Shown here: positions 637 to 11,877 of the stretch, one piece after another | Position numbering within the stretch: the stretch's first letter is position 1 | Layout: every line of letters starts with the position of its first letter | IMG/VR virus record: IMGVR_UViG_2843291059_000004 | Location: 70,479-134,478 of that record | Reading direction: 5' to 3' (one strand) | Origin: a virus | Lineage: Duplodnaviria; Caudoviricetes | DNA length: 64,000 nucleotides | Notes under the pieces: generated by a model | What the model was told of the DNA's origin: nothing | The model's input: the letters and a program-made list of their open reading frames with translations, nothing else | The model's database searches: none | Translations under genes and position numbers: made by a program

Positions 637-3420
637 ATGGCAAAGCAGCAAACTTGCCAAAAGTTTGTTTTTAAGATCCATACGAAGCGTCTGGTTGAAG
701 CAAAATGGGATTTAACTCTACCATTAGATGAAGCCAGACGAAATCACGAGATTATCTCGTTGGCTGATAGCACTGTTCTACGATGGATTGATGAGTTGAA
801 TGGTGTTACGGATGCAGAGGCTAAGGCACGGAGTATTAAGCGTAGAATTAAGATGTTACGGAATGAACCCTCTTGCTTAGAGAACCGCCGGGAAATTCGG
901 AGATTATACACTGAGCTTGACACAGTTCAGTTCAAACCGGATTATATGTGTCTGGTGGTAGACAAGAAGAATGATTACCGCCGGGCATGTTCTCCTAAAG
1001 GGTTCAAAATCAATGGAATTACATATCGTCGCTTGGTTGGAACCACTGGTGGTGTAAAGAATAGTACGATTGTGTTTGTGAGCGACCGTCTTATTGATGA
1101 TATCCGCAAACGAATCGATAATGGCCGTAACAAGGGAATGGAATTTGTGCCTGCAAAGTTAGAGGCTTATAGAGCCCTTGCTTGCTCTGCTTCTATTCCG
1201 GTCACTGACCCTGATGGTGTACTTGTTATAGATGATTGCTATACGCGCTTTAAAGACCATGTTGTTGTTCTGGACGATGGAGTGTCTGGAGAACCTACGA
1301 TAGTTGAAGATAAGGAACATGATTGTGAGCTGTGTGCGAATGACGGTTTTGGACTCATCAGTTACGACCTTGCACAGCAGTGGAGTGAGGATCTGAAGCT
1401 CCCATCCACCGCGTCTGGCTTCTGCGTGCGGAATGCGTTCTGTAAAGGCATGTTATTTCCCTTCCCTTTCCGCGAGTTCGCTAAGAAGATAGCAAAACAG
1501 AATATGCTAAAAGACGCATGGGGAGATTATCGTGATATAAATAGGATTCAAGTAGTTCTTAGTACCTCTATGTTGAAGCTGTGGGATAGTTATCATAGTT
1601 GTGAGGACTATCTTGAAAACTGTAGAGAGAACCACTATCACTTCTCTGTAACCAAGACTTGTGAGTTGGAGCTTGATGAGGAGCGCAATCTGAATTATCA
1701 GTTTATCCAAAGCTATCAGCTTACGAATGATGAGATTCGTGAGCTTGTAAAGCCGACTTTGGACGAAATCAAGGGCGTCATGGGCGGTGATTGGCGTGAT
1801 GCGTTGCTGTATTTGCGTGGCAGTGGAATGCGTGATGACCCGAATTACATAAACAGTCTGGAAAACGACTATATTAAGGCTCTTATGATTGAGCCAGAAA
1901 TGATTAACGACCCTTATGTGCAGAATCGGATTCGATACTTTATTAAAAAGCGAATCTCTCAGGCAAAAACTGGTGTTGTAAAGGTACGAGGGAATTTTCA
2001 AGTTGCGAGTGGCGATCCATATGCGCTTTGCCAGTCTATGTTTCGGATGGAGGTAACCGGACTATTGAAGGCCGGTGAGGTTTACAGTCGTTTTTGGAAT
2101 GATAGAGACGTCAAGAGGGTTGCTTGTTTTAGAGCTCCTATGAGTCAGATGGCAAATATTCGGTGCATGAATTTGAATGTATCTGATGATTGCCAATACT
2201 GGTATCGCTATATGAAGTCCGTGTTTATCACCAATGCGTGGGATAATATGTGTGCAGCGCTTAACGGTGAAGATTTCGATGCCGACCTTACATTTTCTAC
2301 CGACAATAGAGTCCTCATTGATAAATGGGTAAATGAGCCGGTCGTTCTTTGTGTTCAGCGTAAATGCGAGAAAAAAGTTCCGACCGAAAAGGATTTTATT
2401 GAATCTAATATCAGCGGATTTGGAGATAATATTGGACGTACAACAAACCGAATTACAACGATGTTTGATGTGCGAAGTAAATTTGAGCAAGGTAGTAAAG
2501 AGTACGATGAACTTACGTATCGCATTATCTGCGGACAGCTTTATCAACAGAACGCGATCGACAAAATAAAAGGCGTAGCTACGACAGATATGCCGCAATA
2601 CTGGTATGACAATAAAGCTTGCGCCGTTAAAGATGATGATAATCCTGATACTATCGAGGATAAGAAGTTCTGGAGTAGTATTTGCGCATGGCGTAAGCCA
2701 TACTTCATGAGCTACATCTACCCTGCTCAGATGCGTGATTACAAGCAGTATGTGGCCGCAGCTCGCAAGCGCATCAAGTGGGATGGGTTTGCCGGCCTGG
2801 ATGAGATTATGCAAAAGACCGTCAAGGACGATGTGGATGAAATGGTTATCCAGTATTACCTCTATCGGATGCCGGTCGGAATCAATTCTTGTACCATGAA
2901 TCGTTTATGCTGGACTGTCGAGGATGAATTAGAGGACTTTGAAGAAGAACTCAAGATAAAGCGTAAGTTTGATTATGACTCACTCAAGTCTGGCGTTGAG
3001 TACACCAATTCTCAATACTATGGTATCCGCTCTATTTTTAAGGATTACTTGAGGTTTGCTCGTGGCAACGCAATCCATTCTGGCAACGGAAACAATAATA
3101 AAGAAACCAGCGCAGACCGCAAGGAGCGAATTGCGCTATATCAGGAAAGTATGTTCCGTAATCTTCACGATAAATGTTCCAATGACGATGTGCTTTGCGA
3201 TATTATGCTTGATCTTTGTAAGAAGAATGCATCCAGTATTGCAATCGTCTGGGAACTGTTTCATGATACTTTGATTAAACGCTTATTGGAACGCCATGAC
3301 GGTATGGTGCATTCTCTTGTGCAGGACGAGAATGGCGACATTGAATATGATGGCAAGCGTTTCAAGGATGTGTTGATTAACATGAATAGCAAGGAGGATG
3401 CGGATGATTGTATTGAATGA
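637..3420 (+). CDS. yonO: YonO-like single-subunit (two-barrel, RdRP-family) DNA-dependent RNA polymerase
   Basis: 927 aa; DGFG, KGML, RAP and catalytic loop NGEDFDADL (DxDxD); GGAGGT RBS; lies upstream of SPbeta-like late genes. Confidence 0.85.
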   Translation: MAKQQTCQKFVFKIHTKRLVEAKWDLTLPLDEARRNHEIISLADSTVLRWIDELNGVTDAEAKARSIKRRIKMLRNEPSCLENRREIRRLYTELDTVQFKPDYMCLVVDKKNDYRRACSPKGFKINGITYRRLVGTTGGVKNSTIVFVSDRLIDDIRKRIDNGRNKGMEFVPAKLEAYRALACSASIPVTDPDGVLVIDDCYTRFKDHVVVLDDGVSGEPTIVEDKEHDCELCANDGFGLISYDLAQQWSEDLKLPSTASGFCVRNAFCKGMLFPFPFREFAKKIAKQNMLKDAWGDYRDINRIQVVLSTSMLKLWDSYHSCEDYLENCRENHYHFSVTKTCELELDEERNLNYQFIQSYQLTNDEIRELVKPTLDEIKGVMGGDWRDALLYLRGSGMRDDPNYINSLENDYIKALMIEPEMINDPYVQNRIRYFIKKRISQAKTGVVKVRGNFQVASGDPYALCQSMFRMEVTGLLKAGEVYSRFWNDRDVKRVACFRAPMSQMANIRCMNLNVSDDCQYWYRYMKSVFITNAWDNMCAALNGEDFDADLTFSTDNRVLIDKWVNEPVVLCVQRKCEKKVPTEKDFIESNISGFGDNIGRTTNRITTMFDVRSKFEQGSKEYDELTYRIICGQLYQQNAIDKIKGVATTDMPQYWYDNKACAVKDDDNPDTIEDKKFWSSICAWRKPYFMSYIYPAQMRDYKQYVAAARKRIKWDGFAGLDEIMQKTVKDDVDEMVIQYYLYRMPVGINSCTMNRLCWTVEDELEDFEEELKIKRKFDYDSLKSGVEYTNSQYYGIRSIFKDYLRFARGNAIHSGNGNNNKETSADRKERIALYQESMFRNLHDKCSNDDVLCDIMLDLCKKNASSIAIVWELFHDTLIKRLLERHDGMVHSLVQDENGDIEYDGKRFKDVLINMNSKEDADDCIE

Positions 3421-7207: not shown

Positions 7208-7295
7208 GCCAGTGTAGTTCAGTTGGTAGAACGCGGGTTTTGTAATCCCGATGCCTTTATGGATTTCGCATGTTCAAGTCATGTCACTGGCTCCA
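7208..7295 (+). tRNA. tRNA-Thr(TGT) with an unusually long variable region
   Basis: Acceptor GCCAGTG/CACTGGC, U73, encoded CCA, anticodon loop TTTGTAA, T-arm GCATG-TTCAAGT-CATGT, 17-nt variable region. Confidence 0.75.
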
Positions 7296-7296
7296 T

Positions 7297-7372
7297 GCCA
7301 CTTTAATTCAGTAGATAGAATGATGTGTTCGTACCACATATGTCGTAGGTTTGATTCCTACAGGTGGCTCCA
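7297..7372 (+). tRNA. tRNA-Thr(CGT), degenerate
   Basis: GCCACTT/AGGTGGC, anticodon stem ATGTG/CACAT, loop TTCGTAC, CCA; D-loop lacks GG and T-loop is TTTGATT. Confidence 0.7.
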
Positions 7373-7573
7373 AGCTGTGCGGTCAATAGTTGCTACCGCC
7401 TAGACCAACTCAATCTACGGATGGTTGGATACAAAGTAGTTCTGTGGAACGAAATGATAAGCTATTCGTGTTTCGCCACGTTAATGCGAAGCTTTAAAAG
7501 TCTAAAACAAGCGTTTTATCAACACGAGGACAATTCAACTAGCTCGGATGATTTGATGGATGCTTGTTTACAT

Positions 7574-7649
7574 GGGGATGTAGCTCAGTGGCTAGAGCAT
7601 CTGACTGTTAATCAGAGTGTCGCCAGTTCAACTCTGGCTAGGGCCTCCA
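7574..7649 (+). tRNA. tRNA-Asn(GTT)-like with a mispaired acceptor stem (possible pseudo-tRNA)
   Basis: Perfect D, anticodon (TCTGA-CTGTTAA-TCAGA) and T arms; acceptor GGGGATG/TAGGGCC has 3 mismatches; CCA present. Confidence 0.65.
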
Positions 7650-7715
7650 AAGATTGTACAGCTATTCCCTACACCTTTATATAAAGGTAGCTGTACAGGA
7701 AAGTAGGGTTATTGT

Positions 7716-7807
7716 GCGGTCTTACTCAAGTGGTTGAAGAGAACGGTCCTGAAAACCGTTAGGTCGGCGAACCCGATGCCAGAGTTCGAATCTCTGAGAC
7801 CGCGCCA
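7716..7807 (+). tRNA. tRNA-Ser(TGA), class II
   Basis: GCGGTCT/AGACCGC, G73, CCA, long variable arm; anticodon loop CCTGAAA (C33 instead of U33). Confidence 0.8.
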
Positions 7808-7874
7808 GTCCTTCTCCCGGAGGGCCTATATTATACCGGTTCCCTACCACCGACTAAAAGGTAGGTTTTATTGT

Positions 7875-7982
7875 GAGCTTGTAATGCGAAGAGGTTGAAC
7901 GTGGCGGATGGTAGCAGACATCTGCACGAAGCGAGATTGCTTATTCGTGGATACAGCGCAGGTTCGAATCCTGTCAAGCTCG
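7875..7982 (+). ncRNA. tRNA-like RNA with a non-canonical anticodon arm and a very long variable arm
   Basis: GAGCTTG/CAAGCTC acceptor, GCAGG-TTCGAAT-CCTGT T-arm, 7-bp GCGGATG/CATCTGC arm with 8-nt loop, CACGAA/TTCGTG variable arm; no CCA. Confidence 0.6.
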
Positions 7983-8090
7983 AAGAAAATGGCTATATGA
8001 GCGCGACATATAGCAAGTCCGAAGTCTTGGTTTTAGAATCATGATGTACACATGACTTTCTACTTCTTGAGACACTTAGGCATCATATAG

Positions 8091-8170
8091 CGCAGCGTTG
8101 CCCAGTCAGGTCTACGGCACCGGCCTCATAAGCCGTGTATTCGTTGGTTCAAATCCAACCGCTGTACCCA
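8091..8170 (+). tRNA. tRNA-Met(CAT), initiator-like and degenerate
   Basis: CGCAGCG/CGCTGTA with C1xA72 mismatch, loop CTCATAA, T-arm GTTGG-TTCAAAT-CCAAC, CCA; anticodon stem GGC/GCC rather than GGG/CCC; C73. Confidence 0.75.
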
Positions 8171-8513: not shown

Positions 8514-9635
8514 ATGCCGAGAAAGAAAAAGGTACTAGATTCCGTCGAGGCATCTATACCCACCAAGGAAAAATGGGAATGTACTCGTTGTGAACACTCA
8601 TATGAAGCTCCAACTGGACATTTTTATAAAAATAGTTTTTCTCAATTATTTAAAAATCGAGGTGGGTTCTCTACTCTTTGTAAAGAGTGTGTCAATGAAT
8701 TATTCGATGAGTACACGAAACGATATGAGAGTGAACGTACAGCATGTATGATTCTCTGTCATATGTTGGATTTTCCATTCTATAACAGTCTTTATGATTC
8801 TATTGTGCAGAACTCAGGCTCTTGCAAACCAGGAATGTACGCCAGAGCTCTCTCGTGTCGGCAGTATCAATTTCAGACATTTGCAACCGTTCTTACGAAT
8901 GGTGAATTGAATAAGAACGCTCTGGATGTTCGAGATGAAAAAGAACAGAAATGGTCTAAAGCTGAAATCCAAGCGAAGGACGATGTTATCGCTATTGTTG
9001 GTTACGACCCATTTGAAGGTCATGCCGAAAATGATCGAAGATATCTGTTTAGTGATCTAATTAAATATTTTGAAGACGGAATTGAAGATGACCCTTATAA
9101 GCTGTCACAGATTATTCAGGTTGTCATCAATAACGGCCAGATTCGTAAGATTGATTTCCGACTTGCCCAGCTTGACCCGATGAATTCAGCAGACACTATC
9201 AAGAGCCTTAATGATATTAAGGTCAAGTTGGTTTCTAACAACGATAAAATTGCCAAGGAAAACGAGATTTCTGTCAAGAACCGTTCCAATAAGGATGCCG
9301 GACGTAATACGCTTACATTCTTGATGAAGGATATGCGGGAAAAGGATATTGCTGGTGCAGAAGCAAACTTTTACGACCAGTTACGGTCTCCGGGCACTCA
9401 ATGGGCGGCAGATATGAGTGTTAAGGCAATCAAGGAAAATGCTTTCTTTGACGAAAATGATATGCAGGAAATTTTCGATACACAAAGAGAACTGATTGAT
9501 AAGTTCCAGAAAGAAAGTGATGACGCTAAGGAAAAATACAGGCTGTCTCTTATCGAAAATCAGCGGCTCAAAGAATTGTTAGAAGATGCTGGTATTGACG
9601 CAAACGCAAAAGATACGGATGGTGATGCCGTATGA
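8514..9635 (+). CDS. zinc-finger protein upstream of the terminase (YonG-like; candidate small terminase/packaging factor)
   Basis: GGAGGT RBS, CTRC..CKEC N-terminus, coupled to terminase. Confidence 0.6.
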   Translation: MPRKKKVLDSVEASIPTKEKWECTRCEHSYEAPTGHFYKNSFSQLFKNRGGFSTLCKECVNELFDEYTKRYESERTACMILCHMLDFPFYNSLYDSIVQNSGSCKPGMYARALSCRQYQFQTFATVLTNGELNKNALDVRDEKEQKWSKAEIQAKDDVIAIVGYDPFEGHAENDRRYLFSDLIKYFEDGIEDDPYKLSQIIQVVINNGQIRKIDFRLAQLDPMNSADTIKSLNDIKVKLVSNNDKIAKENEISVKNRSNKDAGRNTLTFLMKDMREKDIAGAEANFYDQLRSPGTQWAADMSVKAIKENAFFDENDMQEIFDTQRELIDKFQKESDDAKEKYRLSLIENQRLKELLEDAGIDANAKDTDGDAV

Positions 9636-9939
9636 GAATGAAACAAAGAGCGCCTATTATTACAGCCGTAAAACGTAAGATTTATGAGTGTGATGCGGCA
9701 ACGATTGCGTTCTATCGGCGTAATCCTGTTATTGCGGCCAGAGATTTATTGGGTATCCAACTATTTGACGCTCAGGCATATATGCTGGAACAAAGCTGGA
9801 ATGCAAGTCATGTTCTTTGGGCATGTAGTCGAAACTTTGGTAAGTCTTTTGTAGGTTCTGTTTTCATTCTACTAAAGGCTATCCTATATGAGAATCAAGC
9901 TATTTACATCGTAAGTAGCGTTGGTGATCAGAGTAAGGT
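9632..9939 (+). CDS. terminase large subunit, exon 1
   Basis: Walker A CSRNFGKS; coding continuity breaks after VSSVGDQSK at the group I intron P1. Confidence 0.85.
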
Positions 9940-10334
9940 AAGTTGCCTCACATATACAGAGATGTGTGTGTGCTTCTTGGTTAATTGCAGGTAATTGGTA
10001 AAGCTCTACACTAAAACGGAGTTGGAAACGACAAACGTAAATGTGCGAAAGCAGAAAAAACGTAGAGATGAGCTATGCTGAAATAAAAGCGTCTTATGAC
10101 GTGCTAAGGCTCGTAATAATCCATGTTCATGCAGCCACCACCCGTAACGTCTATATGACAGGATGAGGTTCAACGACTATCTCCTTGTGGGAGAGTAAAA
10201 CCGCAAGCTTATGGCGGAGGAAAAATCAAGCTCCAAATTTATTTTGGATGATGAAATAGTCTATTCACGACAAGAAATTGTGTGGTCGTTTATGCGGCAA
10301 TGTACAGTTGCGATGTACATTAAATACATTCAGA
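9940..10334 (+). mobile_element. group I intron without ORF in terminase (395 nt; boundaries +/-1 nt)
   Basis: P1 AGGT/GCCT with U.G; P AATTGCAGG 9983; Q CATGCAG 10128; R GGTTCAACGACTA 10167; S GAAATAGTCT 10253; P10 AAGTT/AACTT. Confidence 0.85.
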
Positions 10335-11877
10335 AACTTTTAATAAAATCGAAGAAATTGTCACTCGTGCTGGTAAGACGGCAGCGTCTATACGTAGTCT
10401 GCAAGATATTGCAGAGAAGGAAACGAAAAAGTCTGCGACGAATAAGAGTGGTTTTAGTCATAATCCCGCCGGGTATGTTGTTGAGTTTTATAATGGTAGT
10501 TCCATCAGTACACTGAACTCCAACCCGGATAGTGCAAGAAGTCGCCGTGCCAGTCTTGTGTTTTTTGATGAGGCAGCGTTTTGTGCTGACGAATTGATTG
10601 TTGTCTGTGAAGCATTTGCAACTCAGAACACAGACTTCGTGACTGATACAGACGACAGCTATAATCCCGAGACACAACCGCGCAAGGTTCCTACACAACT
10701 TGTGTATGCTTCGAGTCAGGATACGATGGATAAACTATTCTATCGTTATTATAAAAACTTTGCAAAGCGTATGATTGCCGGTGACCGTGATTATTTTGTT
10801 TGCGACATGATTTGCGATGTTGCAATTCAGGTCTATATGAATGGTAAACCATACAAGGCTTTGTTGACAAGAGACAAAGTGGAAGCCGCTCTAAAGTCAA
10901 ATAAAATGAAGGCGTTGCGTGAATATTATAATCGCCCAAGCCGTGATGGTGGCGTAAACCAGATTATCAAATGGGGTACAGTTCGTCGCAATGAGCGAAA
11001 GTATATCCCACAGCTTTATTGGGATAAGAACTATCAGTATATTCTTGCGTTTGATCCTGCCCGCACAATGGATAATTCTATTGTTGGTGTTATGCGTATT
11101 TATAACGATCCAGAAAACGGCATGTGTGGAGATATTATCAACTGCGTGAACATGGTTGATATTGCAAATGAGAAAAAATTCAAGCTCGATTCTAATCGTC
11201 AGCTTGAGCAGTTACATGAGTTGATTCTACATTACAATGGTCAAAATCCTGATTACGAGTACATTGATAGATTGATGATTGACCAAGGCGCTGGCGGCGG
11301 TGGTACTTCCACATATGCGGACGGTTTGCTTAATAATTGGACCGATAAAACAGGTGCGGAACATCGTGGTTTTATCGACGCAAATCATGAATTATATGAA
11401 GGATATGATGCCCGTTACCCAGATGCTGTTGATAAGCTACGTCTAATTAGTCCTCGTAAATTCCGTACTGCCATGGTTGAGGAATTTATTGAGTTGATGA
11501 ATCTTGGCGTCATTCACTTCCCTCTTGAATATAACGGCGGAGATTACGTTCAGGTAGTAGACGGCGTGGATAAATCAACTGGTCAAGAAATTTTGAAGAC
11601 GCATGAACTCACTTTAGAAGAACAGACTGCATGGGTTAATATCGACTTGATGAAGAACGAGATTACAAGCATTCAGAAAACGACAAACTCTGAAAACACG
11701 ACCGTAACATATGCTTTGGCACCCGATGTTGCCAATAAAATTCACGATGATAGGTTCTATGTTGCTATTTTGCTTGCTCATCGTCTATACGAATTACGTC
11801 GTAAGGATAAAGTGCGCCAGTCTGCGGTGGAGACAATGACTGCTCCGCCGATTTGTATTTCTAACATTGACTTCTAA
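10335..11877 (+). CDS. terminase large subunit, exon 2 (spliced product ~616 aa)
   Basis: Frame open from ~10324 (..TFNKIEEIV..) through Walker B VFFDEA and the RNase H-like FDPARTMD...HDDR nuclease motifs. Confidence 0.85.

Follow-up and report, generated by a model that had tools for sequence, protein, structure and literature searches.

Judged from its own sequence and those of its relatives, the element that splits the terminase large-subunit gene of a provirus is genuine: a conserved group I intron, in a gene essential to the phage, that is unable to obey both end rules of its class at once. In the window (the whole 64,000-nucleotide stretch of DNA analyzed, whose coordinates are used throughout), exon 1 ends ...AGT AAG G in the frame of ATG 9632 and is followed by T9939, AAGTT, G9945, and CCT. 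The intron ends ...ATTCAG10333 and is followed by AAACTTTTAAT, the exon 2 frame being GAA (10333 to 10335), ACT, TTT. If the exons are joined by the textbook rule, which cuts behind U9939 and behind G10333, the result is AAG GUA AAC UUU UAA, with one base too many and a stop. A preliminary description had claimed that the two canonical sites together fail to restore the frame, which these junction letters bear out, and its arithmetic for three in-frame routes (SKVTF by a terminal A, SKETF by a cut before the U, and a +1 slip) is correct. By route, the junction letters are AAGGUAACU for Val, AAGGAAACU for Glu, and AAGGUAAACU for canonical splicing with its extra nucleotide. On the sequences compared, an mRNA spliced at terminal G10333 can regain the frame and the intron-less sequence only by losing the U of the P1 U·G pair. 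The core of the description, that one of three non-canonical routes must operate, holds; as for the choice among them, we infer that the cut before the U is favored and that the terminal A and the +1 slip are disfavored.

The split terminase gene and the fold of its intron

The source record is a 134-kb provirus. In its late region the terminase gene has SPβ-type yon neighbors, YonG_N upstream and YonD_N downstream, and the carrier of the split gene is an SPβ-like gut prophage. Exon 1 starts at ATG 9632, ends ..SSVGDQSK, and holds the Walker A motif CSRNFGKS; the exon 2 product, TFNKIEE.., carries the Walker B motif LVFFDE and the nuclease domain. The features, with the evidence for each, are as follows.

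9632 to 9938, + strand: terminase large subunit exon 1, 102 codons (M...SK) plus G9938, base 1 of the Glu codon; from the ORF and its translation
9939 to 10333, + strand: group I intron, 395 nt, with no conserved ORF; limits from intron-less alleles, Rfam RF00028 and covariation
9936 to 9948, + strand: P1 hairpin (A9936-U9948, G9937-C9947, G9938-C9946, U9939·G9945); loop 9940 to 9944 is the P10 guide
9949 to 9972, + strand: P2, 10 bp (9949-9958/9963-9972); 100% paired, with both bases changed in 5 of 10 pairs
9976 to 9981, + strand: P3 5′ strand, partner 10225 to 10230; 96.5% paired
9986 to 9991, + strand: P4 5′ strand UGCAGG, partner 10127 to 10133 with A10129 bulged; Rfam alignment, read from the sequence
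10173 to 10179, + strand: P7 5′ strand ACGACUA (A10173-U10262, C10174 bulged, G10175-C10261); invariant in 19 of 19 variants
10231 to 10250, + strand: P8 hairpin; 3 pairs change on both sides
10257 to 10262, + strand: P7 3′ strand UAGUCU; covariation alignment
10263 to 10265, + strand: J7/9, in which U10264 pairs with A10332 (P9.0)
10266 to 10321, + strand: P9, P9.1, and P9.2 hairpins; compensatory changes in each
10333, + strand: omega-G (terminal guanosine), invariant behind at least 6 different 3′ tails
10334 to 11877, + strand: terminase exon 2, AA (finishing the Glu codon), 513 codons, and the stop; from the ORF, its translation, and homolog alignment
10335 to 10339, + strand: P10 3′ strand AACUU, partner 9944 to 9940 (guide AAGUU)

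More than 100 homologs are single 616-aa proteins, that is, 102 + 1 + 513 residues, with a joint reading S/A-K-E-T-F, and residues 1 to 102 of the intron-less homologs are collinear with exon 1. The residue pair at the joint is ET in 105 and QT in 5 of the 111 close homologs with the motif, and V occurs in none. At 30 to 45% identity the Glu position is E in only 64% of homologs, with L, I, and M rare, and a Val might thus be tolerated there, to judge from this variability; the Phe of the joint motif is kept in 79 of 85 distant homologs. The terminase Glu also aligns with a Glu of T4 gp17 (SAEVL), a weak match at the motif level. Queried separately, the exons gave zero matches in Pfam, and tblastn of exon 2 against the phages collection found nothing. 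Separate translation of exon 2 was considered and rejected: there is no start codon near its start in the window or in the L077 type, and a TTG is present in L003 only.

Just upstream of the packaging genes lies a tRNA cluster (7208 to 8170) that includes a tRNA-Thr(UGU) with an unusually long extra segment (7208 to 7295) and a tRNA-like gene (7574 to 7646; GUU loop, Asn) that was found by Rfam and missed by ARAGORN.

Rfam RF00028 matches 9929 to 10284 over the full model with 34 bits (E 6.8e-7). This score falls below the gathering score of 50 because some 120 nt are inserted in P5/P6; the intron of the relative L099 scores 34.5 bits. For the covariation test, a hand-built structure of 59 pairs was placed on an alignment of 19 distinct intron variants from relatives. 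In it 97.6% of cells were paired, against 27 to 45% in slid controls, and 24 pairs were altered on both sides, against 7.5 in shuffles. The group I fold, with core helices P3 to P8 and the P3/P7 pseudoknot, is confirmed by covariation, and compensatory changes were seen in P2, P8, P9.1, P9.2, P10, and P9.0. P1 is invariant in the 19 aligned variants save L099 (UA), so that its U·G pair is present in 18 of 19; P2 abuts the guide sequence directly, J1/2 being absent. The G-binding pair of P7, which the preliminary description had judged intact, is G10175-C10261, adjoining bulged C10174, and is the same in 19 of 19 variants. We take the P7 letters to be those of a Tetrahymena-type P7. The P9.0 pair 10264-10332 is Watson-Crick in all 19 variants (CG in 9, UA in 9, AU in 1).

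A10334 sits between the terminal G and P10, so P10 begins at the second base of exon 2. At its pair 9944-10335, 17 variants have UA and 2 (L127 and L143) have CG, and pair 9941-10338 is AU, GU, or UA. In L127 and L143 the guide has changed together with the exon (UGUC/GACA), which proves the register: the base beside G9945 pairs with 10335, not with 10334. Covariation thereby confirms the earlier assignment of the AAGTT/AACTT pairing as starting after A10334. A gut-metagenome contig (run X4) matches the intron to about 10195 and then continues in unrelated letters (window 10169 to 10195), which hints at another variant of the intron, one that carries an insertion close to P7.

Conservation of the junction in relatives

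The layout AAGG-U...G-A was found in 68 independent contigs (IMG/VR, ENA, JGI, and Logan) holding 32 distinct intron sequences, with zero exceptions. Homopolymer runs flank the 3′ site, and the preliminary description had raised a one-base sequencing or assembly error in the A or T run; the recurrence of the same junction letters in all of these contigs and variants refutes this, and we consider its likelihood negligible. Nor does any relative have a canonical in-frame junction, the other finding that might have overturned the claim. Even the diverged carrier L147, with 67% intron identity, has the same layout. Variation among the 32 sequences includes at least 4 forms of the P1 loop and at least 6 forms of the 3′ tail before G10333 (..UUCAG, ..AUCGG, ..UUUGG, ..UUCGG, ..AAAAG, and ..AUUUG), and the exon 2 contexts are two, A-AACUUUU and A-GACAUUU.

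Intron-less alleles define what was inserted. L001, L002, and L005 read AGTAAGG^AAACTTTT (the caret marks the joint), the nearest intron-less alleles are 98 to 99% identical in the exons, and L005 and 11 further intron-less loci match the window letter for letter in the 146 nt that precede the site. Since these alleles read AAGG^AAAC (Lys-Glu-Thr), the inserted DNA is exactly U9939 to G10333; for the second exon context, the intron-less allele is AAGG^AGAC. In the comparison with intron-less homologs, which the preliminary description had proposed as a check, it is its SKETF route that reproduces these alleles exactly.

In every complete intron-bearing locus, both exons can be read from end to end, exon 2 for 513 codons. 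Among intron-bearing alleles, both exons show strong purifying selection, with a dN/dS of 0.02 to 0.08 at a pS of 0.63 to 0.72, which is near saturation. Together, the open exons, the low dN/dS, and the covarying helices imply that the intron must splice productively. The synonymous divergence of the exons far exceeds the divergence of the intron copies, which are 89 to 98% identical; these values are compatible with lateral spread, or could simply reflect ribozyme constraint. Intron-bearing and intron-less alleles coexist in a mosaic, and many carriers are complete genomes of about 130 to 140 kb.

U9939 and G9945 are nearly invariant, and the adjacent loop bases vary. In a single contig, L099 (9682 to 9710), the guide base G9945 has become A, so that the P1 pair is U-A rather than U·G; this may be an error. 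Such a pair would be harmless if it lay away from the cut site and harmful if it lay at it.

A scan of the genome_contigs collection for the intron core found nothing, and in the phages collection the intron matched only the generic core of other phage introns. The closest intron-core relative in isolated phages is L150 (Clostridium phage c-st, 128224 to 128541; 67% over 284 nt), which lies in an unannotated gap directly upstream of IS605-like OrfA/OrfB transposase genes, an IStron-like arrangement.

Other rearrangements were seen at the terminase locus. In a 36.6-kb IMG/VR contig (L040, 2480 to 2510), the upstream gene (window 2483 to 3043, ..TTTAAGG) is joined directly to exon 2 (AAACTTTT..). 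The deletion spans about 6.9 to 7.3 kb, and its joint lies in TAAGG microhomology exactly at the intron insertion site (compare window 3039 to 3043 and 9934 to 9938). Two origins are conceivable for this joint: the homing site may have suffered a double-strand break that was repaired by end-joining, or the contig may be an assembly chimera. About 66 codons into exon 2, L099 (10285 to 11595) carries a second insertion, some 1.3 kb long and ORF-bearing, as do L086, L102, L106, L109, L110, L112, L114, and L125. It sits between ..AGAAGT and AGACGTGCT, just before Walker B LVFFDE, with a U preceding it and a G at its end; the Rfam group I model did not detect it at E ≤ 0.001. L149 (789 to 1961), which belongs to the diverged L147/L149 type, has an exon 2 that stays open for 86 codons only; next comes an ORF encoding a LAGLIDADG_3 domain, and this may be a further intron or an intein in the terminase gene.

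We also searched for spliced RNA or processed copies. None of the sequencing runs on record as RNA holds the intron-bearing stretch. In two wastewater runs guessed to be RNA (X10 and X20), short contigs join 9937/8 to 10333/4; we rejected these as evidence of splicing, as they are letter for letter the intron-less DNA alleles (L005 and 11 others, including C10370T). An exact-pattern scan of viral_contigs and metagenome_contigs for the Val junction (GGTAACT) and the canonical +1 junction (GGTAAACT) returned nothing, which is absence of evidence only.

Placing the splice sites

In the model that we favor, G9938 is the last base of the 5′ exon: cleavage takes place at a G-C pair, and the U·G pair falls to the intron, one step in. 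On the sequences in hand we give this model about an even chance of being right. Both the position of the 5′ cut and its chemistry are what we infer here. A mobile, ORF-less group I intron would lie between bases 1 and 2 of a terminase Glu codon, and excision would remove exactly U9939 to G10333, leaving an mRNA that equals the intron-less allele (..AGU AAG GAA ACU..). The 3′ side would be canonical, with G10333 docking in the P7 G-binding site and placed by the P9.0 pair U10264-A10332; it looks canonical because G10333 is invariant, the G-binding pair is normal, and 10264-10332 covaries. The 5′ side would be non-canonical: the last exon base, G9938, would pair with C9946 as the reactive pair, and the intron would begin with the pair U9939·G9945. 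The phosphate that reacts would in each step lie 5′ of the base facing guide G9945 (U9939 in step 1, A10334 in step 2), with P1 (AGG/CCU) and P10 (AACUU/AAGUU) flanking the reacting position. The ligated exons AGG-A-AACUU would pair with the guide at 8 of 9 positions, leaving one A·G mismatch.

The capsid-gene intron of the same phage (16503 to 18085), which has the same P7 letters, a 3-nt J7/9, and a canonical in-frame junction, served as a control for the 3′ end. Its junction has the form GAU^AAA CGU or, in a second lineage, GAU^AAG AGA; either way the residues are D-K-R. Its pairs exchange C-G for U-A at +2/omega-1 and A-U for G-C at +3/omega-2. Applied to the terminase intron, this geometry has 10332 precede the terminal base, and the terminal base is therefore G10333. 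The two capsid-intron lineages differ in J7/9, 3′ tail, and exon 2 codons (AAACGT versus AAGAGA), with compensatory P9.0 changes, and the endonuclease ORF within the capsid intron is not the same from phage to phage among the relatives (L152 to L191).

Because the Glu codon must keep its G, no point mutation can give a U at G9938, which would explain why the oddity persists. The model ending exon 1 at G9938 appears self-consistent and would make the intron phenotypically silent, as fits an element residing in terminase alleles whose exons differ more than its own copies do. If it is true, the register is forced by residence in a Glu codon, and the intron spreads among terminase alleles without a phenotype. 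It could equally turn out, or fail to turn out, to be the first natural group I ribozyme that cuts 5′ of the U of its U·G pair, with a purine at −1 in both steps. Against the model stands the fact that we know of no natural group I intron with a purine at −1. The near invariance of U9939 and G9945 is to be expected of a wobble that functions at the cut site, and the canonical tape-measure intron of this phage (28148 to 32950) has its U·G at the same distance from P2, as the fourth pair. In a permuted Anabaena intron, moreover, only a pyrimidine opposite G served as the 5′ site, and the reaction was abolished when T-G was reversed to G-T (PMC12355055).

Splicing to a terminal A, with the 5′ cut after U9939 and ligation after A10334 (..AAG GUA ACU.., Lys-Val-Thr), seems unlikely to us. 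It would let P1 and P10 form a perfect contiguous 9-bp helix with the ligated exons, in the P10 register that covariation confirms, and it accounts for the conserved U·G pair, but it leaves the invariance of G10333 without a reason and faces a G-binding pair that is a normal G-C. The alternative 2-bp P9.0 (10264-10333 and 10265-10332) is paired in 84% of cells, yet it has 6 non-pairs, fails in L147 (A·G), and shows only one-sided change, and the geometry of the capsid intron points to 10333. There is a precedent in hexacoral ND5-717, which lacks a terminal G and ligates its exons in vivo (PMC6545197); in the terminase gene, on this reading, A10334G would restore a canonical end at no coding cost, and it is absent from the 32 variants. 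Although the Glu position is variable in distant homologs, V is present in no close homolog and a GTAACT allele in neither viral nor metagenome collections. A ribosomal slip, in which both canonical sites are used and a +1 shift at UUU-UAA restores the frame as Lys-Val-Asn-Phe, is the sole reading in which the ribozyme obeys all rules, but we regard it as very improbable. The letters U UUU UAA put a stop directly behind a run, as in the "shifty stops" that PMC5009743 lists. UUU-UAA stands in most variants, but the site is not conserved: it reads GAC AUU UAA in L127 and L143 and UUU CAC in L147. With a stop codon, UAA or UAG, in the target frame, no more than 2 to 5 codons are left for the shift. 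Product length would be unchanged, at the price of two or three residues that are near-invariant in close homologs, the Phe being kept in 79 of 85 distant ones. ARAGORN found 11 ordinary tRNAs in the whole 134-kb genome and zero with a 4-base anticodon, and the additional tRNA-like gene that Rfam places at 7574 to 7646 likewise has a normal GUU loop. As a weaker point, no 105-aa product ending in SKVNF is on record; a search for this exon 1 product gave only read-through ORFs from unspliced DNA.

It is also conceivable, but decidedly unlikely, that splicing is sloppy or throttled, being mostly out of frame with a minor in-frame fraction that suffices because little terminase is needed, or that the allele is defective and survives by being carried in prophages and by recombining with intron-less phages. 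Every RNA signal has a canonical look, an altered wobble pair lowers fidelity in the Tetrahymena ribozyme, and the mosaic of intron-bearing and intron-less alleles would suit recombination. Such an allele is nevertheless hard to reconcile with covariation and low dN/dS in both exons across deeply diverged intron-bearing alleles, with a layout that persists from 98% to 67% intron identity, and with the many carriers that are complete genomes of about 130 to 140 kb.

Other readings of the ends were rejected. The junctions AAG^GUAAGU ... UUCAG^ (9935 to 9943 and 10327 to 10333) are a perfect match to the eukaryotic spliceosomal consensus; this resemblance does not fit the frame, and relatives whose tails are CGG or UGG have lost it, so we consider it a coincidence. 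For a 5′ cut after U9934, the letters AAGGAAACU would have to come from exon 2, which does not contain them. An intron running from G9938 to A10332 would have as its terminal base 10332, which covaries as a pair and is U in L147.

Comparison with known introns and recoding systems

A 5′ exon ending in U opposite a guide G is a near-universal, rather than a defining, rule of group I introns. It underlies group I annotation tools, the design of trans-splicing and circular-RNA ribozymes, and models of substrate docking, and intron boundaries drawn by rule would here give a frameshifted "pseudogene" call for an essential phage gene. To our knowledge, no natural intron with G-C at −1 and a wobble at +1 has been described. 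In engineered 5′ splice-site variants of the Tetrahymena intron, as in those of Anabaena, the cleavage site needs a pyrimidine opposite G.

The terminase large-subunit introns of Bastillevirinae (PMC11878797) and the phage's own capsid and tape-measure introns share with the terminase intron the same core (P3 to P9, with the ACGACUA/UAGUCU P7), the P1 U·G, a terminal G, P9.0, and P10. Like these canonical phage late-gene introns, it lies in a conserved motif of an essential late gene. The capsid and tape-measure introns have U(−1) and a terminal G in frame, with P10 right after the terminal G. The terminase intron, unlike both, has a base, A10334, that keeps P10 apart from its terminal G, and to keep the frame U9939 must leave with the intron.

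Another close system is ND5-717 of hexacoral mitochondria, a natural intron that breaks a "universal" splice-site rule and whose exons are perfectly ligated in vivo (PMC6545197). There the terminal G is missing; in the terminase intron the terminal G appears to be present, and the broken rule is most likely the U at the 5′ exon end; the two would share a type only if A10334 were the last base of the terminase intron, which the sequence evidence disfavors. Furthermore, ND5-717 is a giant, host-dependent organellar intron, whereas the terminase intron is a 395-nt phage intron. The prfB-type +1 shifty stops and T4 gene 60 bypassing (PMC5009743) show frame problems repaired in translation, as they would be under a ribosomal slip; unlike those systems, the terminase relatives have no conserved slip or take-off and landing site. 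The engineered Tetrahymena and Anabaena 5′ splice-site variants pose the same question as the terminase intron, namely, which pair may occupy the cleavage site, and the one reversed pair tried in Anabaena, with G at −1, gave no activity (PMC12355055). As a natural, evolutionarily successful family present in dozens of phage genomes, the terminase introns offer a system in which to ask how the cleavage site is measured, whether by the wobble, by the distance to P2, or by the P1/P10 junction.
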